A DNA stretch of 64,000 nt from Patescibacteria group bacterium (lineage in GTDB: Bacteria > Patescibacteriota > Patescibacteriia > JAHJFT01): NCBI GenBank assembly GCA_028710985.1, contig JAQTTB010000001.1, forward strand, positions 523,014 through 587,013, written 5' to 3'. The notes under the pieces are model-generated. The model was not told the origin of the DNA and made no database searches. It saw nothing but the letters and a program-made list of their open reading frames with translations. Position numbers and translations under genes: made by a program. Positions 11,101-62,460 of the stretch are shown here, piece after piece (the stretch's first letter is position 1; every line of letters starts with the position of its first letter).

Positions 11101-11155
11101 ATCGCCCGGTACGGGCGATATTTTTTTGTAGAGGTCGCATATATGTGACCTCTAC
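11101..11155. terminator. bidirectional double-hairpin terminator between miaA and gatB
   Basis: ATCGCCCGGTACGGGCGAT plus T-run, then GTAGAGGTCGCATATATGTGACCTCTAC (GCATATATGC-loop family). Confidence 0.6.
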
Positions 11156-11156
11156 A

Positions 11157-12665
11157 TTATTTTTGTAAAAATTTTTCAAGCAGAACCTTCGTGATATTCG
11201 GATCCGCGGTTCCTTCGGATTTTATCATCACCTGGCCGACAAAAAATTGGATGAGCGCGGTTTTTCCGGCGCGGTAGGCCTCGGCCTTGTCCGGATTATC
11301 TTCAACTACCTGGCGGACGATTTGTTCAATTTCCGCTACGTCGCTCATCTGCCCGAGTTCGCGGTCCTCCATAATCTGGCTCGGATCCTGGCCGGTTTCA
11401 AGCATGGCTGCAAGAATTTTTTGCCCGGCGGCGCTGCCGACCTTATTCGCGTAAATTAGGCTCACGAATTCGGCGAAATTTTCCGGCGTGATTTTCAGAT
11501 TCTTGATGTCAATATTTTTATCCGCCATGGCGCCCGCGAGCTTGGAGCAGAGCCATCCGCCGACAAGTTTCGCGAGTTTATTCTTGTTCTTTTCGTAAAT
11601 TTCTTCGGACGTGCCGTCCAGGTCCGGAACCGACGCCAGCCATTCCTTGAGTTCGCTCACGGTGTTTTCCGCGTATTCGGCCCAGTCGAGGTCGCTCGTA
11701 AGAAACCGCGCGTTCTCGCCCGAAAATCCGTATTCATCCATGAATCTTTTTCTCTTGGCGGCCGGAAGCTCCGGCAGGGCGGATTTTGCGCGGGTAATCA
11801 TGTCGCCCAAATCAAGCGGGGGAATATCCGGTTCGGGAAAATAGCGGTAATCTTGCTCGGCTTCCTTGACGCGTTGTTCCACGGTTTCGCCCGCATCTTC
11901 GTCCCAGCCGCGGGTTGACTGCTGGCTCGGCGGCTTCCCCTGTCCCCAGAGTTTTTCCTGGCGCATGATTTCATATTCCAGTGCGCGTTCAACGGCCTTG
12001 AATGAATTCAGGTTTTTGATTTCGGTTTTCGGAAACAGAGTCTGCGTATCGGCCGGCCGCAAGCTTACATTGGCGTCGCAGCGCAGCTCGCCGCGCTCCA
12101 TGTCGGCGTTGGAAACTCCGAGATAGCGCATAATTGTGCGCAGCTCTTGCAAAAAAATTTTGGCTTCAAACGGAGTCGCGATGTCCGGCGCGGTCACGAT
12201 TTCAATGAGCGGGGTGCCGCCGCGGTTGTAATCAACCAGCGTGGCGTCTTTTTCATCGTGAAAAGATTTAGCCGCGTCTTCTTCAAGATGCACCCGGATG
12301 ATATTTATGCGGGCATAGTTGCGCGGTCCCTTCGGAATTTCGATTTCAAGATAGCCGTCCTTGGCGATCGGCATGTCGTATTGCGATATCTGGTAGCCTT
12401 TCGGCAGATCCGGATAGAAATAATTCTTGCGGTCGAATTTTGAACGTTCCTGGATCGTGCAGCCCAGGGCCGCCGCGGCGCGAATGCCGAATTCAATGGC
12501 CGTGGAATTCACCACCGGCAAAGCGCCCGGCTGGCCGGTGCAAACCGAACAGACCGCCGTATTAGCCGGAGTGCCGTCCGGCACATTGGCGCACGGACAG
12601 AACATCTTGGTTTTAGTCTTGAGCTGAACGTGTATTTCCAGCCCGATGACTGGCTGATATTGCAT
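11157..12665 (-). CDS. gatB: Asp/Glu-tRNA amidotransferase subunit B
   Basis: Canonical MQYQPVIGLEIHVQL N-terminus; GatB/YqeY C-terminal domain. Confidence 0.95.
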   Translation of the reverse strand: MQYQPVIGLEIHVQLKTKTKMFCPCANVPDGTPANTAVCSVCTGQPGALPVVNSTAIEFGIRAAAALGCTIQERSKFDRKNYFYPDLPKGYQISQYDMPIAKDGYLEIEIPKGPRNYARINIIRVHLEEDAAKSFHDEKDATLVDYNRGGTPLIEIVTAPDIATPFEAKIFLQELRTIMRYLGVSNADMERGELRCDANVSLRPADTQTLFPKTEIKNLNSFKAVERALEYEIMRQEKLWGQGKPPSQQSTRGWDEDAGETVEQRVKEAEQDYRYFPEPDIPPLDLGDMITRAKSALPELPAAKRKRFMDEYGFSGENARFLTSDLDWAEYAENTVSELKEWLASVPDLDGTSEEIYEKNKNKLAKLVGGWLCSKLAGAMADKNIDIKNLKITPENFAEFVSLIYANKVGSAAGQKILAAMLETGQDPSQIMEDRELGQMSDVAEIEQIVRQVVEDNPDKAEAYRAGKTALIQFFVGQVMIKSEGTADPNITKVLLEKFLQK

Positions 12666-18232: not shown

Positions 18233-18314
18233 ATTAAGATTATTAATTGGATGGCACTTACTAGAAGCTTGCCCTTTGCGCATTGAGCGGTTGGGGCAAT
18301 AAGTGCGGGTTGGT

Positions 18315-18386
18315 CGGTGAATCAGTGAATCAGTGGATCAGGATATTTGTCCCGATTAACCGGTCAACTGATTCACCGATTCACCG
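18315..18386 (-). terminator. hairpin/attenuator between nusG and rplK built from GGTGAATC tandem repeats
   Basis: GGTGAATCAGTGAATCAGTGGATCAG pairs with CTGATTCACCGATTCACCG. Lies immediately after the nusG stop. Confidence 0.45.
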
Positions 18387-25700: not shown

Positions 25701-25730
25701 TGTATGGGTCGCATATATGCGCCCCGTACA
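25701..25730. terminator. bidirectional hairpin terminator (GCATATATGC-loop family)
   Basis: TGTATGGGTCGCATATATGCGCCCCGTACA between convergent genes. Confidence 0.55.
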
Positions 25731-25731
25731 T

Positions 25732-26583
25732 TTATTTTCCCCACCCAATTACTCTCACCCGTCCGCACATATCGTCATACGGTTTAATCCGGTCGCGCGG
25801 GCCGATAAATTTGATTATTTTTTTGCCCTGCTCGGGATCAATTTCGAAATATGACTGCATGGAGTTGAGATTTGGCAAAATTTTCCGAATCTCGTTGATT
25901 AGCCGTCCGTAATATTTAAGTCCGTCTTTGCCGCCGTCAAGCGCGGCGCGCGGCTCGTATTTTTTCACATCCGCGGGGCACTCGCGCCACACCGCGGTCG
26001 GAAGATAGGGGAGATTGGCCACGATCAAAATATTGGGATTCTTTTTCCAGAATTCAATCGGCAAAGCCTTGAGCAAATCGGATTTTATAAAATCAATCTT
26101 TGCGCCAAGTTTTTTCGCGTTTTGTCGCGCGGTCTTAAGCGCGGCCGCCGAATTATCAATCGCAATGACTTTTACGCGCGGCTTGTTTTTGGCAATCGCA
26201 ATGGCAAGCGCGCCCGAGCCGGTACCTACATCGATTACGGCTGCGCGCGGATGTTTATTCAAATACTTCAACGCCAGGCTCACAAGCATTTCGCTTTCCG
26301 GCCGTGGAATAAGAACCTTTTTATTCACGCCGATCTTGAGTTTGTAAAAATATTTTATGCCCGTGAGATAGGCGACTGGCTCATGCCTGGTGCGGCGCCG
26401 AATTAACTTGGTAAATCGCGCCAGCTCCGGTGCTCGCAATTCTCTGTCCCGGTGCGCGAACAAAAAAACCCGGTCGCGTCCGAGCGCGTGCGCCAATAGA
26501 ATTTCGGCATCGAGATCTGGTGAATCAATATGATTCTGTTGTAAAATTTTCATTGCCCTGGAAAGGGCTTGGGTGATGGTCAT
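25732..26583 (-). CDS. prmC: release-factor glutamine methyltransferase PrmC/HemK (with C-terminal extension)
   Basis: SAM-binding VIDVGTGSGA and NLPY (NPPY-type) motifs. Confidence 0.9.
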   Translation of the reverse strand: MTITQALSRAMKILQQNHIDSPDLDAEILLAHALGRDRVFLFAHRDRELRAPELARFTKLIRRRTRHEPVAYLTGIKYFYKLKIGVNKKVLIPRPESEMLVSLALKYLNKHPRAAVIDVGTGSGALAIAIAKNKPRVKVIAIDNSAAALKTARQNAKKLGAKIDFIKSDLLKALPIEFWKKNPNILIVANLPYLPTAVWRECPADVKKYEPRAALDGGKDGLKYYGRLINEIRKILPNLNSMQSYFEIDPEQGKKIIKFIGPRDRIKPYDDMCGRVRVIGWGK

Positions 26584-26617
26584 ATCGTTATCATATCATG
26601 TTTATTGCATCATTCGG

Positions 26618-26645
26618 TAGGGGCGTATTGCAATACGCCCCTACA
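26618..26645. repeat. REP-like perfect palindrome GTAGGGGCGTATTGCAATACGCCCCTAC
   Basis: 28-nt perfect inverted repeat. Member of the GTAGGGGCG...CGCCCCTAC family. Confidence 0.7.
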
Positions 26646-26776
26646 AGACGACCGCGCATTGACAACCCGGCGCGATTTTGGTACAAATCAATATCCCGCC
26701 GGAATATTTCCGGCCGGAAAACCATGGGTAAGGCTGGCGTCGCAATGCGGCGTTGGTAGGCCCAAGGAGGAAAGAG

Positions 26777-27388
26777 ATGTCCGAAAAGAAAATGATGAGT
26801 CCGAGGCAACTTCGCGAGCTCATGGCCGTGGTCAGCCGGCACCTGTCTATTCATCTGCCGGCCAAGGTGGCGCAGAGCGTGATCGACAAGCCCGGCGATT
26901 TGGAGTTTGAGCTCTGCGAGCTCTTCTGGCGCATCGCCGAAGCGAACGAGAAGGCAAGAAGGGCGGTGGAAGCGAAGCACATCATCGACTGCGACGCCGA
27001 CCCCTATCTGCTCGGCCTCTTCACCGTGGAAGAGCACCGGAGAAGCGGTCAGTTGGAGTGGGACCCGGACAAGGTCGTTCTTTACCTTTCCGATTTGCAG
27101 AGGGGTCGTAGTGTTGTCCAGGGCCACGCGCTCCGCAAGGAACTCCAAAATCAGTCGGTTCTGAACGCCTGCGTCCTGGATTACCTGCTCGTTCATCCAA
27201 ACCTCATTCCCATCATGTGGATGAGGATGCGGGTCTACTTCTGGGGTACGATTTATTGCGATCGAGAAGGTGACCTCTGCGTTCGCGGCCTCTTCTGGGA
27301 AGACGAAAAAGGGTGGTTCTGGCGCTACAAGCATCTTTCGCACGATTTCTACCGCGACGACACCGCGGCGGTTTCTGCAAGCGTCTAG
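26777..27388 (+). CDS. hypothetical Trp-rich protein
   Basis: 203-aa ORF (MSEKKMMSPRQL...) with a strong GGAGGAAAGAG SD. Bracketed by REP palindromes and a CCCGTTTGCATTAAATTGCAACGGG plus T-run terminator. Confidence 0.45.
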   Translation: MSEKKMMSPRQLRELMAVVSRHLSIHLPAKVAQSVIDKPGDLEFELCELFWRIAEANEKARRAVEAKHIIDCDADPYLLGLFTVEEHRRSGQLEWDPDKVVLYLSDLQRGRSVVQGHALRKELQNQSVLNACVLDYLLVHPNLIPIMWMRMRVYFWGTIYCDREGDLCVRGLFWEDEKGWFWRYKHLSHDFYRDDTAAVSASV

Positions 27389-27621
27389 TAGCGGCGCATT
27401 GCAATACGCTGCTACGCGCCGACCCCCTGACCCGTTTGCATTAAATTGCAACGGGTCTTTTTTATTTAAATGCGAGTAGGGGCGGACCCCTGCGTCCGCC
27501 CTGTTCGTCGGGCGTCCGCCCCTACCATTTGTCGTCACCAACAAACGGCCGGTCGTCGATTTTCACCGCGTAGGGGCGAACGGCCGTTCGCCCCTACCGT
27601 TGATCCGTAATACGCCCCTAC
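27388..27621. repeat. cluster of four GTAGGGGCG-family palindromes plus a half-site
   Basis: Palindromes at 27388-27415 (GTAGCGGCGCATTGCAATACGCTGCTAC), 27476-27526 (GTAGGGGCGGAC...GTCCGCCCCTAC) and 27570-27597 (GTAGGGGCGAACGGCCGTTCGCCCCTAC), plus the half-site AATACGCCCCTAC at 27609-27621. Confidence 0.7.
27429..27467 (+). terminator. intrinsic terminator of the 26777 gene
   Basis: GACCCGTTTGCATTAAATTGCAACGGGTC followed by TTTTTTATTT. Confidence 0.6.
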
Positions 27622-27645
27622 CGGCGCAACCCCAATTCATTCCAT

Positions 27646-27673
27646 TTGATTTTAGGGGGAGGTATGATACAAT
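27646..27673 (+). promoter_or_regulatory. putative promoter of paralog A
   Basis: TTGATT, 16-nt spacer, TACAAT. Confidence 0.35.
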
Positions 27674-27701
27674 AATATCAATTTAAAATTAAATTAAAAT
27701 T

Positions 27702-28421
27702 ATGGACAAAATCAACCCATCCATGCCCGGCGAGGCAAAAAATATGTCCGCGGTCTGGATAATCGTCGCCATCGTAATCGTCGCCGTCGCGCTCGGCGGA
27801 TTAATGTATTATTTTCAAACCCTGTCGCAAGAAAAATTCGTTGCGCAGGAACAGGCGATTAATGATTTGCGCGAAGAACTTGGTCAGCCGACGGTCGTGG
27901 CTGAGGAAGGGGTGGAAGAGGAAGGTTCGGCCGAGGAAGAATATCTTACCTTTGAATCCGAACCAGTTTCTGTTTTACCCGAGATATTCTCGTTTGAATA
28001 TGCCAAAGGTTGGCATATTTATCATGAATATGATCATGGATGGGGCGAGGAAAAAGAAATTAGCAAAATATTAGTTTCGCCTGACCCGCTTCAGATTGCG
28101 CTTGACGCCGAATATTTACCTCAAGTTTATATTCTTGTCGATTTTGACTCCGTGGATACTCTTGATGAGTTCGTCGATCGGAAGTATGGAGATTCGGTGG
28201 AAACGAGTGAGGACGTAATAATTGCCAACTATCCCGGAAAAAAGATACACGTTGTAGATGACAAGATCAGCGGAGAAGATATTGAGGTTTATGCCTTCGT
28301 ATCCCCCAATGCCGCGTATTCTATTTATATTTATTATCCCGGCATAAAACAAGCAAGCATTGACCTCCCGGCAGAATATCAGCGCATCATTGATTCATTC
28401 AAGATTGAGTCAGGCAGTTAA
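27702..28421 (+). CDS. paralog A: N-terminally membrane-anchored secreted protein with acidic linker
   Basis: MDKINPSMPGEAKNMSAVWIIVAIVIVAVALGG signal-anchor. First ~55 aa are ~90% identical to paralog B and the C-terminal domain is unrelated. GGGGGAGG SD. Confidence 0.6.
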   Translation: MDKINPSMPGEAKNMSAVWIIVAIVIVAVALGGLMYYFQTLSQEKFVAQEQAINDLREELGQPTVVAEEGVEEEGSAEEEYLTFESEPVSVLPEIFSFEYAKGWHIYHEYDHGWGEEKEISKILVSPDPLQIALDAEYLPQVYILVDFDSVDTLDEFVDRKYGDSVETSEDVIIANYPGKKIHVVDDKISGEDIEVYAFVSPNAAYSIYIYYPGIKQASIDLPAEYQRIIDSFKIESGS

Positions 28422-28475
28422 TCGCACGATTCAAAAAAGGCCGCGCGTTTATTGCCGGCCTTTTTGAATATACGC

Positions 28476-28545
28476 GCAGGGGCGTATTGTCGCGTAGGGG
28501 CGAACGGCCGTTCGCCCCTACCGTTGATCCGCAATACGCCCCTAC
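28476..28545. repeat. second copy of the GTAGGGGCG palindrome block
   Basis: GCAGGGGCGTATTG half-site, GTAGGGGCGAACGGCCGTTCGCCCCTAC (28494-28521) and the AATACGCCCCTAC half-site. The ~95-nt block 28487-28581 is near-identical to 27563-27657. Confidence 0.7.
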
Positions 28546-28570
28546 CGGCGCAACCCCAATTCATTCCATT

Positions 28571-28600
28571 TGATTTTATCCGGGGGGGGGGTGGTATAAT
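28571..28600 (+). promoter_or_regulatory. promoter of paralog B with a G10 homopolymer in the spacer (candidate phase-variable promoter)
   Basis: TTGATT (28571-28576); the spacer contains G10 (28582-28591); extended -10 TGGTATAAT. Spacer is 18 nt with G10 and would be 17 nt with G9. Confidence 0.45.
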
Positions 28601-28630
28601 GCAATCAATAATTAAATCATTAAAATACAT

Positions 28631-29233
28631 ATGGACAAACTAAATGCATCCATGCCCGGCGTGGCAAAAAATATGTCCGCGGTCTGGATTATCGTCGCTA
28701 TCATCATCGTTGCCGCAATTCTCGGCGGAATGATGTATTATTTTCAAACCCTGTCGCAAGAAAAATTCGTTGCGCAGGAAGAGGCGATTGAGGCTCTACG
28801 CGCCGAGTTAAGCGAACCGGCCGCTTCAACTGCGGTAGAAGAAGAGGAGGCGGTTGCGGGAGATCAGGCCAAAGTCGAAGCAATTGATGAGCTTCAATAT
28901 GAAAACGATTATTATGGATTCAGCCTGTCATTCCCAGAGACATGGAGGGGCTATTCCGTTTATCATGAAGCCAATTCAATACATTTTGGTTTCGCGGCGG
29001 AGAAAGATCTCATGGCGATAGAAGTGATGGATTTGGAGGATTGGAAGATAATGAAAAAAGAATTGGATCTTCCGGGCCATGAAGCCGATGCGCTCTATAG
29101 CGCAGCCTACAGGGGCGAGAATGATAATTTCGCATTCTTTGGATGGGCGGCCCAAGACACGGTAAACGATGAGTTTATTCTTTCCAGAAGGATGGAAGTA
29201 GGGTCAATAATTAAAACGTTTAAAGCGAAATAG
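28631..29233 (+). CDS. paralog B: N-terminally membrane-anchored secreted protein
   Basis: MDKLNASMPGVAKNMSAVWIIVAIIIVAAILGG. Shared leader and N-terminus with paralog A; distinct C-terminal domain. Confidence 0.6.
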   Translation: MDKLNASMPGVAKNMSAVWIIVAIIIVAAILGGMMYYFQTLSQEKFVAQEEAIEALRAELSEPAASTAVEEEEAVAGDQAKVEAIDELQYENDYYGFSLSFPETWRGYSVYHEANSIHFGFAAEKDLMAIEVMDLEDWKIMKKELDLPGHEADALYSAAYRGENDNFAFFGWAAQDTVNDEFILSRRMEVGSIIKTFKAK

Positions 29234-29239
29234 TTAAAT

Positions 29240-29290
29240 AAAAAATCGCCCCGACGTTCACTTCATTCAGTCGGGACGATTTTTATTTTC
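29240..29290. terminator. bidirectional terminator between paralog B and prfA
   Basis: ATCGCCCCGAC...GTCGGGACGAT hairpin flanked by A- and T-runs. Confidence 0.55.
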
Positions 29291-29310
29291 TCAGTTCCCG
29301 ATTCACCGAT

Positions 29311-30381
<1,071 letters not shown>

Positions 30382-31011: not shown

Positions 31012-31569
31012 CTAGGGAATAAGGGAGAGCAGCTTGAGCCACTCGGGCTTGATGGTGTCCGCGCCGGTGGGAAACTTGCCGGAGCGGATATTTCCGAGCG
31101 CCTGCTCAAGGCGCGACTTCGTGTTCTCCTCGCTCGCAAGCGTGTGCGTGCTCGGCAGTTTCTTTTTGAAGCCCATGAATTCCTCGTAGGCGGCATATAC
31201 CACGAACTTCGCGCCCTCGGGCTTGGCAACCGGGCTCGGTTCGCTGATCGTCATGCGCACGTAGCCGTACTGGTTATCATCAATGGCCTCGGAATCCATC
31301 CAGTGGCCGCTCCAGAACGGGCCGTCGCCTTCGCGCCGCAGGTAGTAGATGTAGAAATGCGACGATGAGTATATTTTGAAGAAAGCTATGAGGTCGTCTT
31401 CAATGAGCCCCTGGATGACCGAGTCCCCGTAGCGGTCTTTCAGGCCGCCGACGAAATATTTGTCCTCCGTATCGACGTAGAGCTGGCCCGCGAAGTCGAC
31501 GGGCGGATATACTCCTCCGTCATAATTGGCTTCGACGAACTTGCCGCTGACCAAACTTATTTTCAGCAT
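31012..31569 (-). CDS. hypothetical protein
   Basis: Start set at MLKISLVSGKF, preceded by an AGGAGG SD. Confidence 0.5.
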   Translation of the reverse strand: MLKISLVSGKFVEANYDGGVYPPVDFAGQLYVDTEDKYFVGGLKDRYGDSVIQGLIEDDLIAFFKIYSSSHFYIYYLRREGDGPFWSGHWMDSEAIDDNQYGYVRMTISEPSPVAKPEGAKFVVYAAYEEFMGFKKKLPSTHTLASEENTKSRLEQALGNIRSGKFPTGADTIKPEWLKLLSLIP

Positions 31570-35572: not shown

Positions 35573-35578
35573 AAAAAG

Positions 35579-35606
35579 TACGGGTAGCATATATGCGACC
35601 CGTACT
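35579..35606. terminator. bidirectional hairpin terminator (GCATATATGC-loop family)
   Basis: GTACGGGTAGCATATATGCGACCCGTAC flanked by A7 and T8. Confidence 0.6.
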
Positions 35607-35610
35607 TTTT

Positions 35611-37233
35611 TTAATATAATTCTTCTTTTTTCTCTTTGAAGAAATTCACAAAATCTTCAAGCGATTCAATGAGCGCCTTGAACGGCGCTTCAATTATAAC
35701 GTCAAAGATAAATATAAAGAAGTTGATTTTTACGGATTTGAGCGACAGCCATCGGCCGAGCCGGACAATCGGCAAAAAGAGCAGGTCAAAAATCAAAGTT
35801 ATGATATTGCCGCTCGAGCGAATGACGATAAGTTCGTGCGCACTTTGCCGGATTCTGACCCCGAAAAAGCTGATTAAGCTCAGGAACACAATGAATATCG
35901 CGCCGCTCGCGATATTGAATTCAAGTCGGCGCAACCCGTAAATGATAAGTCCAAGGACTCCGACAAAAACCACGGCGTAGATAATATTAAAAATGAAAGT
36001 TACAATCGGGCTGCGGCGCACCACGGTTTGCATGACGATTTTCCCCTGCTCTTCGGGGCTCTTAAAAATTATTTCGCGTAAACCGTCAACGATTTTTTCC
36101 GTGTTCTTTTTGGAAGGAACACGCACCGTCGCGCCGAGGAAGAACATGAGGAGCGGCGGGAAGAGTACGTTTATAGTAACCGGAATGTAGCGGAATTCAT
36201 GGGCGATATAAATATCAAACGGTACCTCGAGGAGAACCGCAAGCACCATTTTTGTGAGAAAAATATAGATCACACTGCGCACCATGCTGCGGCGCAGTTT
36301 GCTCCGGGATTCGTGATAACGGCTGTCGCAGGATTTCCGTATTTCTGAAAAAAACGCTTCTTCCGGACGGAAGGCTGTGCGCGCGAGTTCCGGCTTCTCG
36401 AGGAGTACATCCCGCAGAATGTCGAAAAACACCGTATGCTGCCGGAAGATGCGCAACATTTTTTCGCCGACCGGTTTAACGGCGATGGATTCAATCATTT
36501 TTATTATTTTTTCAAATTCGCGTGCGTAATTTTCTAAATTCTGCTCGCTTGGGGATGACCATTCGGGCCACATCTTTCTTATCATTTCGTAGCGGATGAT
36601 GCCCATGTCGGCTTTCCAGAGAGAACGGAGGTTTGCCACAAAAAGGAGGTAGTCTTTTTCCAGCTCACTCACGCGCAGATCCACGAAATGAACTTTATTG
36701 CTGACCGTCTGCAGCATGAACTGGAGAAGCGCGCGTTCGCGGTCCTTGGGCAGGAGAAGATCCTCAATTTCCGCGGCCGCGGCGCTCCAGAGCCAGTCGA
36801 TATTGCTCCGGTTGTAGGCGCGCGGGTCGGTTTCATTGATTTTTTCTAAAAGAAAAAAATACTTGGAGAGCACCTGCTCTATTTCAAGTATCTTTGTTTC
36901 CGGCACCGTATTATTTTTAAGATATCCGCCGCGGATAAGTTCGTAGGTCAGCGGCCGCGCGATTTCCTGGGATTCAACCCCCGGATAGATGCGGCGTTTG
37001 AGTATCCTCTGGATTGCATTTTTCCGGAGCAGATGGTCGTCCTTATAGTCAACAATGTTGCGGAATCTTTCGTAGACATAGGCAAGCGCGCCGATGATTA
37101 CGTTCACCTGAATCTTTGCGGCACTGGGAGCCGATTCGCCGGCGTGCATTGCCCGTACGTATGAGCTTAAAAATTTTTCCACCAGGGGATATAACTTTAT
37201 GGCCGAGGTGTTTTGCTGATTTGGAATCATCAT
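35611..37233 (-). CDS. hypothetical large protein with C-terminal multi-TM domain
   Basis: 540-aa ORF. N-terminal soluble half and C-terminal half with about five hydrophobic helices. Confidence 0.5.
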   Translation of the reverse strand: MMIPNQQNTSAIKLYPLVEKFLSSYVRAMHAGESAPSAAKIQVNVIIGALAYVYERFRNIVDYKDDHLLRKNAIQRILKRRIYPGVESQEIARPLTYELIRGGYLKNNTVPETKILEIEQVLSKYFFLLEKINETDPRAYNRSNIDWLWSAAAAEIEDLLLPKDRERALLQFMLQTVSNKVHFVDLRVSELEKDYLLFVANLRSLWKADMGIIRYEMIRKMWPEWSSPSEQNLENYAREFEKIIKMIESIAVKPVGEKMLRIFRQHTVFFDILRDVLLEKPELARTAFRPEEAFFSEIRKSCDSRYHESRSKLRRSMVRSVIYIFLTKMVLAVLLEVPFDIYIAHEFRYIPVTINVLFPPLLMFFLGATVRVPSKKNTEKIVDGLREIIFKSPEEQGKIVMQTVVRRSPIVTFIFNIIYAVVFVGVLGLIIYGLRRLEFNIASGAIFIVFLSLISFFGVRIRQSAHELIVIRSSGNIITLIFDLLFLPIVRLGRWLSLKSVKINFFIFIFDVIIEAPFKALIESLEDFVNFFKEKKEELY

Positions 37234-51126: not shown

Positions 51127-52225
51127 TATGGCTCGAATATCCATAAATATTGTCACCTGGAACGGCATGCGCTATCTTCCCGAGGCGCTTGAGTCGATTT
51201 CTAATCAGACATTCCAGGATATTGAAATAGTGATAATTGATAATGGTTCAACCGACGGCACGGTTGAATATATCCGCGATAATTTTACCGGAATTACGCT
51301 TCTACGGAATATGCGCAACCTCGGTTTCGCGCATGGCCACAATCAGGGAATCCGCTTGGTGCTGAACCGATGGCAGAATCAGGATTTGGAAAATAGTTTC
51401 ATTCTCGTTACTAATCAAGATATTATTTTGCGTAAGGATTTTTTGGAAAAAATGATTTCCGTCGCCGAGACGGCGCCGCGCGCGGCGAGTTTTGGCGGAA
51501 AGTTGTTTAAGGCGTTTTTTGCTACAGCTGAAGATAATATCGAAGACAGCATCAAGTCGGATACGCTCGATTCCACTGGCCTCCGGTGCTTTAGATCGCA
51601 CCGTTTCGTGGACAGGGGGGCTGGTGAGCGCGATCAGGGGCAGTATGATGCCGAGAGGGAGGTTTTCGGTGTATCCGGGGCGATTATGATGCTGCGCGCT
51701 TCGGCACTCGCGAGTGTGAGATATAAAGATGAGTTTTTTGATGAAAATTATTTTGCGTATAAAGAGGATGTCGATCTTGCCTGGCGTTTGCGCTTGGCGG
51801 GATGGGGGAGCCTGTATGTTCCCGAAGCGATCGCTCATCATTACCGCGGCGCCTACTCGGCCGAACGCGCCGGATGGATGGAGACCTGGCGCAGCCGTAA
51901 GAGCCGCTCGATGATTGTCAAATTAAATTCGTACGTCAATCATTACCTGACGATTATAAAAAACGCGCATATCCGCAATATCATCCTGCGCCTCCCGTGG
52001 ATTATTGCCTACGAGCTTAAAAAAAATATTTATTTATTTTTTCTTGAGCCTCGGGTTTTCTGGAAAGGGCTTTTTAAACTTTCCGTGAAGCTTCCGGACG
52101 CGCTCCGTAAGAGAAAATTCATCCTTTCCCGCGCCATGCCTACCGGCCCGCTTCGCCATAGCTTCAGCGAGGCGAGCAGGCAGGCCGCGGCGCGCCCGGC
52201 GGAGATAAGAAAATGGTTCAAGTAA
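51127..52225 (+). CDS. family-2 glycosyltransferase
   Basis: Start set at MARISINIVTWNG. GT-A DxD region. The C-terminal tail carries the 49-bp repeat element. Confidence 0.8.
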
Positions 52226-58087: not shown

Positions 58088-60067
58088 ATGGCGTTTAAAA
58101 ATCTTTTTGAGCCGATAATGATCGGCTCGCTCAAATTAAAAAATCGTTTGGTCCTGCCACCCATGGTGCGAAACTGGGCAACCGAACGCGGCGAGGTGAC
58201 CGACCGATTGGTGGATCATTATGCCGCCCTCGCTCGCGGCGGTACGGCCATGCTGATTCTTGAGGCGATCTATGTTTCGCCCGAGGGTCGCGGCTTTACT
58301 TATCAGATGGGCATCGATAATGATGCCTTGGTTCCGGGACTAAAAAAATTAGTTGATGCCGCGCATCAATATGGCGCGGCAATCGGGCCGCAGCTATATC
58401 ATGCCGGCCGCCAGACAAACTCAAAAACTATCAGCCAGCCGCCGGTCGCGCCTTCGCCCATCCCGTGCCCGGTTCAGCGGGAAATGCCGCGCGAACTCTC
58501 GGCCGAGGAAATTTCCGAAATTGAAAACGCCTTCGCCGCGGCCGCCCTGCGCGCCAAGGGAGCGGGATTTGATTTTGTTGAAGTGCACGGTGCGCACGGT
58601 TATCTCATTACGCAATTTTTATCCGCGTATTCAAACAAAAGAAAAGACGCGTACGGCGGCGATCTTGAAGGCCGCATGGCATTTTTAAAAAATATCATTA
58701 AAAAAATTAGAGCTGCGGTTGGCCCGGATTATCCCGTGACCGTGCGGCTTTCGGGTGAGGAGCGCGTTCCCGGCGGTCTCACCATTGACGACACGAAAAA
58801 AATCGTCAAAGAGCTGGAAAAACTCGGCATTGACGCGGTGCACATTTCCGTCGGCAATTACGGAAGCTTTGCCGAGGGACTCATGATTCCGACCATGGCC
58901 GCGCCGACCGGAGCGCTGGTATATCTCGCCGAACAGGTGAAGAAATCAACCAGGCTGCCGGTAATCGCGGTCGGAAAAATCAACACCCCCGAACTCGCTG
59001 AAGAAATTATTGCGAACGGCCAGGCCGATATGGTTGCCCTCGGCCGGGAGCTTATGGCCGATCCGGAATGGCCGAACAAGGTGCGCGATGGCCGCGCCGA
59101 TGAGATTCAGCGGTGCATTGCCTGCAACCAGGGATGCATTGACCGGCTGTTTGCCGGGCTTGATACTCAGTGCGTGGTCAATCCGCTTTTCGGGCGCGAA
59201 CGCGAATTCGCGGTTACCCCGGCGGCTGATTTAAAAAAAATCATGGTGATCGGCGGCGGTCCGGCGGGCATGCAGGCCGCGATTGTCGCCAAGAAACGCG
59301 GACATGGAGTTGCGATTTATGAACAAGGAAGCGAACTTGGCGGCGCTTTGCTTTTTGCGCAGAAACCGCCGCATCGCGAGGGCATCGCCTGGCTGGTTAA
59401 GGATTTTATCGCTCAAATACACGAACTCGGCATTGAGGAAAATTTCAATACCGAAGTGACGCCCGAACTTGTCGCCGAGGTCAAACCCGACGCGATTATT
59501 ATCGCCACCGGCTCGGAGTGTGCCCTTCCTCCGATTCCGGGAGTAAATCTGCCGAACGTGATGTCGCCGCGCGATGTTCTTTCCGGCCAGGTCAGAGTTG
59601 GAAATAGTGTTATCGTCGCTGGCGGCGGCTGTGTCGGCGCCGAGGTAGCCGAATATTTGGTCGAGCGCGGACATAAAGTGAAAATTGTGGAAATGAGAGA
59701 GGCGATTGTCAGCGATCTTGGATTTGCGGACGGCGTTCAGCTGCGCGCCCGTTTGGAAAAACTTGGCGTTGAAATTTTTACAAAAACAAAAATTCTTGAA
59801 ATAAAAAAAGACGGTATTGTGATTGAGCGCGAAGGCCTGCCTGCTCGCCTCGCTGAAGCTGTGGCGAAGCGGGCCGGTAGGCAGGGCAAACGCGATGAAA
59901 TCGGTGGCGAGAGTCTGGTGCTTTGCCTCGGCTCAAAATCGGTTAATGATCTCGAAAAATTGCTCGTCGGAGCCGCGTCCGAAATCGTGGTTGTCGGCGA
60001 CGCCGTGGAACCGCGGCGTATTCTTGAAGCGGTCTACGAAGGCTATGCCGCCGGATTAAATATTTAA
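58088..60067 (+). CDS. NADH:flavin oxidoreductase of the Old-Yellow-Enzyme / 2,4-dienoyl-CoA-reductase type with C-terminal FAD/NAD(P)-binding domain
   Basis: Start set at MAFKNLFEPIMIGSLKLKNRLVLPPM. OYE TIM barrel (HGAHGYLITQFLS), Cys cluster CIACNQGC, then GGGPAGMQAA Rossmann motif. Confidence 0.85.
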   Translation: MAFKNLFEPIMIGSLKLKNRLVLPPMVRNWATERGEVTDRLVDHYAALARGGTAMLILEAIYVSPEGRGFTYQMGIDNDALVPGLKKLVDAAHQYGAAIGPQLYHAGRQTNSKTISQPPVAPSPIPCPVQREMPRELSAEEISEIENAFAAAALRAKGAGFDFVEVHGAHGYLITQFLSAYSNKRKDAYGGDLEGRMAFLKNIIKKIRAAVGPDYPVTVRLSGEERVPGGLTIDDTKKIVKELEKLGIDAVHISVGNYGSFAEGLMIPTMAAPTGALVYLAEQVKKSTRLPVIAVGKINTPELAEEIIANGQADMVALGRELMADPEWPNKVRDGRADEIQRCIACNQGCIDRLFAGLDTQCVVNPLFGREREFAVTPAADLKKIMVIGGGPAGMQAAIVAKKRGHGVAIYEQGSELGGALLFAQKPPHREGIAWLVKDFIAQIHELGIEENFNTEVTPELVAEVKPDAIIIATGSECALPPIPGVNLPNVMSPRDVLSGQVRVGNSVIVAGGGCVGAEVAEYLVERGHKVKIVEMREAIVSDLGFADGVQLRARLEKLGVEIFTKTKILEIKKDGIVIEREGLPARLAEAVAKRAGRQGKRDEIGGESLVLCLGSKSVNDLEKLLVGAASEIVVVGDAVEPRRILEAVYEGYAAGLNI

Positions 60068-61389: not shown

Positions 61390-62460
61390 TGATTTGGACC
61401 TTATAATTGGTTTTGTTCTTGGCCGCGAATCGCCAATATCCGGTTTACCCCACAAGGGGAACCGGCCACTATATCACAAGATTTCACGCTTGTCAATGGA
61501 GGGGGGGATGTGTTAAAAAAGCGGACATCTTGTCCGCATTTTTTGTTCGTAAATCGGTAAATTGATTTGAATTTTAGATAATTCTGTCAGCAACTCTTGA
61601 CAAATTCCGCAGAGCGTACTAATGTTCAAGGTTCGTTGCGAAAATAATATTTTCAGGGTTGTGTAAATAAGTTTGAAGTAAAAATATTACGGGAGGGGAT
61701 TGAGGGCCAATCTCGCAAATCCTACTTATCTACACCATTGTGAAAATTTTGTCAAGCGATTGACAGATTAATCACGCGTAGAGGAGAAAGATAAGAATGC
61801 CTTGGTATATCTCGTAGTGCCGGGGCGTTTTTGTATTGTAGTAGATGATTGTGGACTTGTATAAAACGAAAACAGACCCAGAAGGGATCTGTCAGGAAAT
61901 TAAGCACTTGAAATGATTTATTGGTTCATTTCAGACCAGGACAGCTTTCCGCCTCACCACTTGTCTTCCCACGGCATGGAAAGACACCAGGTGACTGATG
62001 GGGGCTTGATCGTGTCTAGATCGTGTTTTGTGGCTCCTTAGGCCACGCCTTTTACCTGAATCCGCTCATGTCCTCTTGTCCTCCTTGGCTGATCGAAGTC
62101 CGAGAGCATCGTAGCACTAGCACAACATGCCCATATAATATCACATTTTGGCACTTTTGTCAAGAGACTGCCAGCCCGCAGCAAAGCTGCGGGCAATTTT
62201 AAGTTGTAAATTTTAAATTTTAATTCAAGCCCCAATTTCTAAATTTTTAATAACAAAATGTCGCGTCGCTGCTTGTTTGAAGAATTTTGAATTTATAATT
62301 TAAAATTGAATTATAATTTAAAATTAAAAAAGTCCTCATTTTGCATTACGCGCAAAAGAGGACCGGCACCCAATTCTTATATTAACAAACAATTTATTAG
62401 CATAAGGATTGTGAGCGCTTTTTGACAGAATGTCGAGGCGCGCTCGAGAATACCTCGGAA
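61390..62460. other. AT-rich ~1.1-kb gene-poor region with internal bidirectional terminator and short AT tandem repeats
   Basis: No ORF longer than 65 aa. Terminator AAAAAAGCGGACATCTTGTCCGCATTTTTTG at 61516-61546. Tandem AATTATAATTTAAAATT repeats at 62286-62330. Lower GC than the flanks. Confidence 0.4.

Follow-up and report, generated by a model that had tools for sequence, protein, structure and literature searches.

Partial concerted evolution by gene conversion is exemplified in bacteria by the tufA/tufB genes and by the opa genes of Neisseria. REP and BIME elements are GC-rich palindromes with a GTAG head, which are often clustered and nested. The Mog1/PsbP-like fold, an antiparallel sheet with flanking helices and a hairpin at the N-terminus, usually acts outside the cytoplasm as a membrane-held module for binding or scaffolding. 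The vlp, vsp and vpma genes of mycoplasmas are clustered surface-protein genes, in which the 5' untranslated region and the N-terminal export signal are highly conserved but no significant homology links the mature parts (PMC2268961). Switching through spacer length is known for vlp, maa2 and vmm, and in vlp a homopolymer located in the -35/-10 spacer sets the gene on or off (PMC2268961).

The two genes described here lie in a 64,000-nt stretch of DNA (hereafter the window) from a Patescibacteria group bacterium, in which prfA and prmC are separated by a 2.7-kb REP-rich insert. This insert holds gene A (27702-28421, plus strand; PHW53_02650, MDD4995336.1, 239 aa) and gene B (28631-29233, plus strand; PHW53_02655, MDD4995337.1, 200 aa), and family searches identified prmC (PrmC), prfA (RF-1), L31 and an orphan gene, ORF203, as their neighbours. 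An earlier note on this DNA had described the pair as a conserved promoter, leader and export module fused to unrelated cargo domains, which would be the signature of domain shuffling or cassette switching. A sharp and real break indeed separates a shared 5' module from strongly diverged ectodomains in these two tandem, separately transcribed surface-protein genes. The explanation that we favour, with restrained confidence, is that A and B are old tandem duplicates, the 5' ends of which were homogenised by gene conversion and the diverged ectodomains of which share a fold. The pair is an ordinary evolutionary pattern, not cassette switching.

The upstream part of the module is a direct repeat of 88 nt (27567-27654 and 28491-28578, plus strand) in which 87 of the 88 positions are identical (99%, one mismatch). 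The near-identity initially reported for 27563-27657 and 28487-28581 is real, but these limits extend a few bases too far on either side. Within the window, a 32-nt stretch from the block occurred exactly twice (0.00 expected from shuffles), and no further copy of the block was found in the 64 kb beyond these two. Each copy contains a perfect 28-nt palindrome, GTAGGGGCGAACGGCCGTTCGCCCCTAC (27570-27597 and 28494-28521). Upstream of gene B, this inner palindrome is surrounded by the outer arms GCAGGGGCGTATTG (28476-28489) and CAATACGCCCCTAC (28532-28545), the whole forming a nested palindrome (28476-28545) with a z of -5.45 when folded as DNA. The outer left arm is absent upstream of gene A, where the first copy of the block carries only the right arm (27608-27621) together with a predicted -35 box, TTGATT (27646-27651).

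Related palindromes were found at the left edge of the insert (GTAGGGGCGTATTGCAATACGCCCCTAC, 26617-26644, between the start of prmC and the ORF203 promoter) and, in a degenerate form with 3 mismatches, directly 3' of the ORF203 stop (27388-27415). The latter is followed by an intrinsic-terminator-like hairpin (about 27430-27464) and by a compound palindrome (about 27476-27525). The REP-type pattern GTAGGGGCG-N10-CGCCCCTAC matched 4 times in the window, all in intergenic DNA, versus 0.01 expected. Like REP/BIME elements, and within the 20-40 nt of GTAG-headed REP/REPIN palindromes, those found here are GC-rich, intergenic and 28 nt long, and run from GTAG to CTAC; moreover, the nested structure 5' of gene B has one of them inserted in the loop of a second. 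REP/REPIN elements typically occur in many dispersed copies with a cognate RAYT transposase; within the 64 kb, the 4 copies found here are all confined to 2 kb (26617-28545).

The block ends at the predicted -35 box. The putative sigma-70-type promoter of gene A (27646-27673, plus strand) comprises TTGATT, a 16-nt spacer with a G5 run and a TG-extended TACAAT (TTGATT-16-TGaTACAAT). That of gene B (28570-28600, plus strand), read from the sequence, comprises TTGATT, a 19-nt spacer and a TG-extended TATAAT, and was missing from the promoter scan list because its spacer exceeds the scanned 16-18 nt. From the block to the start codon, A and B are just 50-73% identical, with indels, the least conserved parts being the -10 box, the spacer (16 versus 19 nt) and a predicted AT-rich leader of about 21-23 nt. 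The predicted -10 is downstream of the block, which is therefore not a leader, and the identical 5' leader attributed to the two genes had to be abandoned. A structured RNA leader was dropped as a candidate for the same reason and because Rfam returned no meaningful match. Terminator-like hairpins are predicted 3' of gene A (28429-28469, with A and T runs) and, from the sequence, at 29246-29285, where one would be common to the convergent genes B and prfA.

The second part of the module is coding. Positions 27701-27873 and 28630-28802 are 87% identical over 173 nt, and 11 of the first 60 residues differ between the two proteins (BLASTP identity of 78% over 64 aa). The strong likeness that had been noticed in the first ~55 codons is therefore real, but the proposed ~90% identity was slightly high, the values being 87% for the DNA and about 80% for the protein over some 60 codons. 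Both proteins have a transmembrane (TM) anchor at residues 17-38 (27750-27815 in gene A and 28679-28744 in gene B), and hydrophobicity over a 19-residue window peaks at 2.8, at residues 17-35, in A and B alike. A single N-terminal hydrophobic helix of about 20 residues, as present here, corresponds to a Sec signal-anchor (type II). Cysteine, G-FTLxE and LPXTG are absent from both proteins, and type IV pilin, lipoprotein and sortase signals were rejected since A and B contain no such motifs. Signal peptidase I may cleave the two proteins after ALG-G.

Synonymous divergence was distributed as a patchwork. dS was 0.45 for codons 1-34 and 0 for codons 35-53 (0 of 10.7 synonymous sites), and pS was 0.97 for codons 54-66 and 0.78 in the aligned hairpin region. 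Neither a single duplication date nor selection at the protein level can give such a pattern. Since synonymous divergence is 0-0.45 in the module and saturated past codon 54, recombination is needed in addition to any selection on the protein. The patchwork would fit short gene-conversion tracts between old tandem duplicates, which we infer from one genome. Codons 35-53 form a near-identical tract of 57 nt (27804-27860 in gene A, 28733-28789 in gene B, plus strand) with one difference, none synonymous; this tract would be the most recently converted one, and is also a possible site of in-frame crossover. As in tufA/tufB and opa, segments of the paralogues are near-identical, with a synonymous divergence far below that of the neighbouring sequence and with sharp tract ends. 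Unlike in these genes, conversion would here affect no more than the region upstream of the promoter and codons 1 to ~53, as judged from a single genome. GC3 was 0.57-0.60 in the shared module and 0.40-0.46 in both 3' parts, a drop that also fits a native 5' module fused to foreign 3' parts.

When A, B and the B ectodomain were compared with 5.8 billion proteins in a word-indexed search (E <= 10), only A and B themselves were returned, and HMMER run on 1.84 billion representatives added one protein, P0003, encoded on a 943-nt contig that offers no informative context. P0003 is the sole outside homologue, with 34% identity over the full length of the gene A protein; as this match includes the anchor, the architecture appears to be ancestral. 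In GTDB genomes, neither a scan with the N-terminal module nor a PrmC scan for the orthologous interval recovered a relative, which indicates that this genome and its close kin are absent from that collection. An attempt to use a further protein (L005) as a bridge between A and B failed. A and B are orphan, lineage-specific proteins with one metagenomic relative, and these three sequences add to the poorly described surface proteome of the Patescibacteria, the lifestyle of which depends on cell-surface contacts.

The gene A protein starts with a short N-terminal tail and the TM anchor, after which a helical stalk and an acidic linker lead to an alpha/beta ectodomain (residues ~93-239, 27978-28418) with a predicted Mog1/PsbP-like fold. 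Gene B encodes the same architecture with a shorter ectodomain (residues ~88-200, 28892-29230), and the linkers of the two proteins have a net charge of -13 and -11, respectively. In low-confidence AlphaFold models of A and B (mean pLDDT 50.5 and 54.0), residues 10-60 form one continuous helix that precedes a beta-rich alpha/beta domain, and both of these models matched the same Mog1/PsbP-like chains. Nothing significant was obtained when model B was compared with the PDB using Foldseek (best E 0.013, mixed list). Sequence searches of A, B and P0003 gave no match in the PDB, nor at E <= 1 with the Pfam/NCBIfam families PsbP, PsbP_2, DcrB/DUF1795 and Lpp-LpqN; identity of A and B to any solved Mog1/PsbP-like member is 5-14%. 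Judging from the models, both ectodomains most likely adopt this fold, as in DcrB, DUF1795, LpqN and PsbP. Membrane-tethered proteins of this type (DcrB/DUF1795, LpqN, MTC28, PsbP/CyanoP) have a lipid anchor, whereas A and B have an N-terminal TM helix and an acidic stalk. Fold, N-in/C-out topology and a cell-surface binding function are predicted properties of the two proteins.

By standard tests, the C-terminal parts of A and B are, as first reported, without detectable similarity beyond residue ~62: their local alignment reached a z of ~2, with 33-62 of 1000 shuffles equally good, and hhalign gave a probability of 1.9% for an A-type profile against the B ectodomain. Residual colinear similarity was nevertheless found with a position-restricted test, devised after the motifs had been seen, which gave a p of 0.0026 for the N-terminal part of the ectodomains, 0.025 for the last 16 residues (IIDSFK versus IIKTFK, and IVDSFR in P0003) and 0.0008 for the sum.

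According to the explanation by duplication and conversion, A and B would descend from one lineage-specific gene as old tandem duplicates. Each would be transcribed as a separate unit, bounded by a promoter-like site and a terminator-like hairpin and with a short AT-rich leader devoid of Shine-Dalgarno sequence, and each product would be a single-pass N-in/C-out protein in which a helical stalk and then a very acidic linker connect the hydrophobic anchor to a small alpha/beta ectodomain. The ectodomains would have drifted into the twilight zone, with the loss of ~35 residues in gene B, and short-tract conversion between the neighbouring copies would have repeatedly re-homogenised the ~310 bp at the 5' end of the unit (block with its REP, -35 box and anchor part). 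The sharp boundary would then arise because conversion can no longer reach into the diverged 3' parts. As the nested palindrome is complete only 5' of gene B, the left end of the copied tract would be 27567, which suggests a transfer from B to A. This would make the locus a mostly ordinary case of lineage-specific tandem paralogues encoding a small anchored surface protein under partial concerted evolution. Its modest value is that conversion of a promoter and signal module can mimic a module joined to unrelated cargo, so that such calls need a check at the level of the fold.

A capture of the module, or domain shuffling, would imply that a pre-existing gene, the ectodomain of which was unrelated or only analogously folded, recently received a copy of the block and the anchor segment at its 5' end, which we regard as possible but unlikely. 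Such an event would account for the sharp homology boundary at codons 54-66, for the GC3 break at the same place, for C-domains lacking similarity by standard sequence comparison, and for the finding that the A ectodomain has a homologue (P0003) and the B ectodomain none in 5.8 billion proteins. However, GC3 is equally low in both 3' parts, which the compositional break thus fails to set apart, and the several divergence ages within the shared module point to repeated exchange rather than to one capture. The matching of both models to the same Mog1/PsbP-like chains and the colinear residual motifs at both ends of the ectodomains argue in the same direction. In metagenomes, the anchor motif W.IV.AV.ITA.VVGGGVYYWQ was found on proteins with other ectodomains (for example L002 and L003, with a faint Big_6 Ig-like domain), as expected of a captured module, but this widespread motif is only ~30% identical to the A/B anchor and the scan yielded only distant anchors. 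It looks like a common type of signal-anchor, not a mobile module. Cassette switching found no support either: neither the block nor either domain has a further copy in the 64-kb window, searches of 5.8 and 1.84 billion proteins retrieved this N-terminus from no others, the repeats are direct and not inverted, and no recombinase domain was detected among the neighbours PrmC, RF-1, L31 and ORF203.

We consider it distinctly improbable that A and B form a small family of phase-variable surface proteins resembling that of the vlp genes from Mycoplasma hyorhinis, each gene having its own promoter and being switched by slippage of a G-run in the -35/-10 spacer. An unequal crossover in the shared in-frame 5' block that would delete or amplify ectodomains, which this reading adds, seems to us just as improbable. 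Phase variation would be compatible with the gene-conversion explanation. A G10 homopolymer (28582-28591, plus strand) falls exactly within the predicted -35/-10 spacer of gene B, and the window has no other run of 8 or more G or C. It gives a spacer of 19 nt where G8 or G9 would give an optimal 17-18 nt, and gene A has G5 at the homologous place, with its 16-nt spacer. The G10 run in one predicted promoter spacer recalls vlp, and the conservation of the upstream block and anchor next to diverged ectodomains recalls vlp, vsp and vpma, in a cluster here of two genes. Surface variation is also plausible for Patescibacteria, which have small genomes and are typically attached to host cells.

Against this, there are two genes only, known from one consensus sequence in which the G-run has a single length, and the promoters are consensus matches, the scan having given 4 promoter-like sites versus 4.2 expected from shuffles. 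Unlike vlp, vsp and vpma, A and B have a signal-anchor without lipobox cysteine and belong to a Patescibacteria, not to a mollicute; unlike vsp, vpma and vsa, they have no adjacent recombinase, and direct repeats take the place of inverted sites. The ectodomains also lack the tandem repeats of mycoplasma variable proteins: TRF detected none in the ectodomain-coding parts, its sole match inside a gene being a 15-nt x2 repeat in the anchor-coding part. A literature search retrieved no paper linking the Candidate Phyla Radiation to phase-variable genes. There is only a slim chance that A and B represent a minimal, independently evolved Vlp counterpart, with alternative ectodomains, poly-G toggling and a 48-57-nt identical in-frame tract allowing chimeras; if true, the pair would provide the first sign of a phase-variable contingency locus in the Candidate Phyla Radiation. 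Should the poly-G run vary in length in the population, phase variation would be testable from existing reads in an uncultivated episymbiont lineage.

Still less probable is that A and B, rather than serving adhesion or as a scaffold, form an envelope immunity-type array which, like Tsi3, Tli4 and TplEi, would neutralise exogenous effectors that target the cell wall or membrane. Diverged immunity paralogues in tandem are common, but no effector or secretion-system gene was found near A and B (neighbours prmC, prfA and the orphan ORF203), PADLOC and PHROGs gave no meaningful match for them, and the fold, predicted from models of low confidence, is common to many unrelated functions. An origin from a phage or a defence island was dropped for lack of matches, viral scans having found nothing.

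It is very improbable that the assembly joined two strain alleles of a single locus head to tail through the shared 5' repeat, even though the source is a metagenome-assembled genome and contigs of short-read graphs break at these repeats, since the unique upstream sequences differ (27480-27566 versus 28422-28490), a separate terminator and then the complete nested palindrome come after gene A, the coding parts differ by 13% with ordered patches of divergence, and the locus sits in a 744,538-bp contig. Both copies are flanked on either side by sequence unique to them, so the tandem layout is not an obvious assembly artefact.

An independent assembly, a Logan contig (SRR22315509), matched positions 26617-27596 of the window with 0 mismatches, and two other samples also carry this contig. 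This contig begins exactly at 26617, carries ORF203 and ends at the palindromes, and thus gives no independent view of A and B. ORF203 itself (26777-27388, plus strand; PHW53_02645, MDD4995335.1) encodes an orphan, cytoplasmic-looking protein and is bracketed by inverted REP-like palindromes. It has a strong AAGGAGG Shine-Dalgarno sequence and a GC3 of 0.74, both of which are atypical for this genome.

Genes A (27702-28421, plus strand; PHW53_02650, MDD4995336.1, 239 aa) and B (28631-29233, plus strand; PHW53_02655, MDD4995337.1, 200 aa) lie on a 744,538-bp contig of a Patescibacteria metagenome-assembled genome. With ORF203 (26777-27388, plus strand; PHW53_02645), a singleton orphan, they make up three plus-strand orphan genes, in the order ORF203, A and B, which occupy about 2.7 kb (26584-29310) and separate prfA (RF-1; minus strand, end at 29311) from prmC (26583-25732, minus strand), rpmE (L31; minus strand) being a further neighbour. 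prfA and prmC normally lie side by side. All four window matches to the palindrome GTAGGGGCG-N10-CGCCCCTAC were located inside this insert (0.01 expected). The A/B pair thus appears to occupy a REP-rich, lineage-specific insert in a housekeeping cluster; no relatives for comparing the prfA-prmC interval were found in the genome collection. ORF203 itself, which lies between inverted REP-like palindromes (26617-26650 and 27382-27415, 85% complementary), has a strong ribosome-binding site (AAGGAGG), a feature that most genes here lack, and its GC3 is 0.74. It had no match in Pfam, NCBIfam, PADLOC, PHROG or PDB and resembles a cassette of foreign or mobile origin.

The shared 5' part of A and B, on which the earlier note was based, was borne out. 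The block of 88 nt found upstream of each gene (27567-27654 and 28491-28578) is identical at 87 positions and includes a perfect 28-nt palindrome, and a 32-nt piece of it occurs exactly twice in the window (0.00 expected). The coding repeat shows 87% identity across 173 nt, and BLASTP indicated 78% identity in the first 64 residues. An independent Logan contig corresponds to positions 26617-27596 with zero mismatches and stops at the palindromes. The description of an identical 5' leader, in contrast, was not retained. A sigma-70-type promoter was predicted for gene A (27646-27673, plus strand, TTGATT-16-TGaTACAAT), whose -35 is the final part of the block. Gene B has the same predicted -35 (28570-28575, plus strand) followed by a TG-extended TATAAT (28595-28600, plus strand); here a TCC insertion and a G10 run bring the spacer to 19 nt. 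Between the block and the start codon lies the least conserved sequence of the shared 5' part (50–73% identity, with indels), which is AT-rich and, as for most window genes, devoid of a Shine-Dalgarno sequence. The block would therefore represent promoter-upstream DNA plus the -35, and not a transcribed leader, provided that the promoter predicted by consensus is the one in use; in the promoter scan overall, sites were not enriched relative to shuffles. With a separate terminator-like hairpin downstream of each of them, A and B are distinct transcription units.

Synonymous divergence between A and B, calculated from Nei-Gojobori counts, revealed a patchwork of ages. The dS value was 0.45 for codons 1–34, no difference was seen over 10.7 synonymous sites in codons 35–53, and pS reached 0.97 in codons 54–66 and 0.78 over the 30 alignable codons of the first hairpin, while the upstream block carries a single difference and the promoter and leader are far more diverged. 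Selection on the protein is insufficient to explain a segment with identical synonymous sites, and one recent duplication is insufficient since neighbouring codons are saturated. This pattern is most simply explained by short-tract gene conversion that took place repeatedly between adjacent old paralogues; conversion would now be limited to the segment similar enough for pairing and would have kept the 5' ~310 bp alike. Upstream of gene B, one REP-like palindrome sits within the loop of another to form a nested hairpin (28476-28545; outer arms 28476-28489 and 28532-28545 enclosing the 28-nt palindrome; DNA fold z -5.45), a nesting which suggests that these palindromes are, or were, mobile. Upstream of gene A, the right outer arm alone is present and the A/B similarity begins abruptly at 27567. 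The B copy would thus preserve the older arrangement, and the A copy would have received a tract with its left end at 27567.

Both proteins possess a hydrophobic segment at residues 17–38 (top 19-residue window score of 2.8) and a predicted helix over residues 10–60, followed by a very acidic linker (net charge -13 in A, -11 in B) and a C-terminal domain of net charge -18 and -9, respectively. Neither contains cysteine, and no lipobox, pilin or sortase motif was found in either. A and B are thus likely to be N-in/C-out signal-anchor proteins with an extracellular C-terminal domain (ectodomain). The earlier note held these ectodomains to be unrelated. Standard methods indeed find no similarity: past residue ~62, 3–6% of shuffles align as well as A and B do, and hhalign with a profile of A plus P0003, its sole outside homologue, did not recognise B (probability 1.9%). 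However, colinear motifs occur near the ectodomain start (FSFEYAKGWHIYHE in A, FSLSFPETWRGYSVYHE in B) and at the extreme C-terminus (IIDSFK in A, IVDSFR in P0003, IIKTFK in B), with p values of 0.0026, 0.025 and 0.0008 (start, end and sum) in a position-restricted shuffle test designed post hoc, once the motifs had been seen. Sequence methods by themselves do not settle the relatedness. The predicted structures are of low confidence (pLDDT 54.0 for model B and 50.5 for model A, the latter built from an alignment that included P0003). A structural comparison of model B gave matches to Mog1 (7.4), BT_1490 (7.3), Tli4_C (6.7), Tsi3 (6.7) and PsbP (6.5), and in Foldseek the same model had weak, mixed matches. 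More probably than not, the two ectodomains derive from a single Mog1/PsbP-like domain and have since diverged, B having been shortened by ~35 residues. Their closest structural relatives are membrane-tethered Mog1/PsbP-like proteins such as DcrB (PMC7716261), with membership unproven in view of the lack of any sequence-model match. Taken together, we lean slightly towards A and B being old tandem paralogues that encode anchored, acidic, probably PsbP-like surface proteins, with the 5' ~310 bp homogenised by conversion.

A full HMMER search of 1.84 billion representatives recovered one extra protein, P0003 (216 aa, on a 943-nt contig), which shows 34% identity and resembles A throughout its length, anchor included; no other relatives were detected among 5.8 billion clustered proteins. 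A metagenome scan led to four loci sharing only the anchor motif W.IV.AV.ITA.VVGGGVYYWQ, with different ectodomains, among them L002 (9995-10528) and L003 (70-603), with a faint Big_6 match, and L005 (906-1628), with a faint PsbP_2 match. The same motif on other ectodomains thus denotes a common signal-anchor type in such genomes and not a mobile cassette, and it may be characteristic of Patescibacteria-like genomes.

Module capture, whose main support is the fall of GC3 from 0.57–0.60 to 0.40–0.46 at the boundary, appears unlikely. Phase variation of the pair through the G10 run (28582-28591) in the predicted -35/-10 spacer of gene B is more doubtful still. This run, a possible slipped-strand switch, is the sole G or C run of at least 8 in the 64-kb window, the next being a G7 at 61501, and gene A has a G5 at the homologous position. 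The mycoplasma vlp/vsp/vpma families, the closest functional analogue of the cassette idea, combine conserved signal peptides and 5' untranslated regions with mature parts that lack homology to one another, and vlp transcription is switched by changes in spacer length (PMC2268961). The A/B pair resembles them by its conserved 5' part and the homopolymer in one spacer, but differs by the lack of a lipobox, a recombinase, tandem repeats and a multigene family. Phase variability can be checked in existing reads. No support was obtained for the domain shuffling or cassette switching first proposed: the 64-kb window has no further copy of the 88-nt block or of either domain, and there is no recombinase nearby.

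Other repeats and one more orphan were noticed in the window. A minus-strand ORF of 185 aa between rpmE and queA (31015-31569), for which neither Pfam nor PHROG gave a match, has a very high GC3 of 0.78. The GTA(N)GGGTCGCATATATGCGACCC(N)TAC palindromes (11127-11164, 25701-25738 and 35577-35614) form a second family, which shares its GTA...TAC ends with the REP-like one. Its copies have A and T runs on either side, occur between convergent genes such as the DUF3048 gene and prmC, and are probably bidirectional terminators. Arrays of 8-nt tandem repeats (CCGATTCA x3.5 and the related GTGAATC/GATTCACC) are located at two distant gene ends (29298-29325 and 18314-18386), one of them overlapping the prfA 3' end. 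Another repeat family is represented by a partly palindromic, GC-rich 61-nt element (CCTGCCTACCGGCCCGCTTCGCCA.AGCTTCAGCGAGGCGAGCAGGCAGG), present in opposite orientation at 52133-52193 and 59827-59887 with 92% identity.
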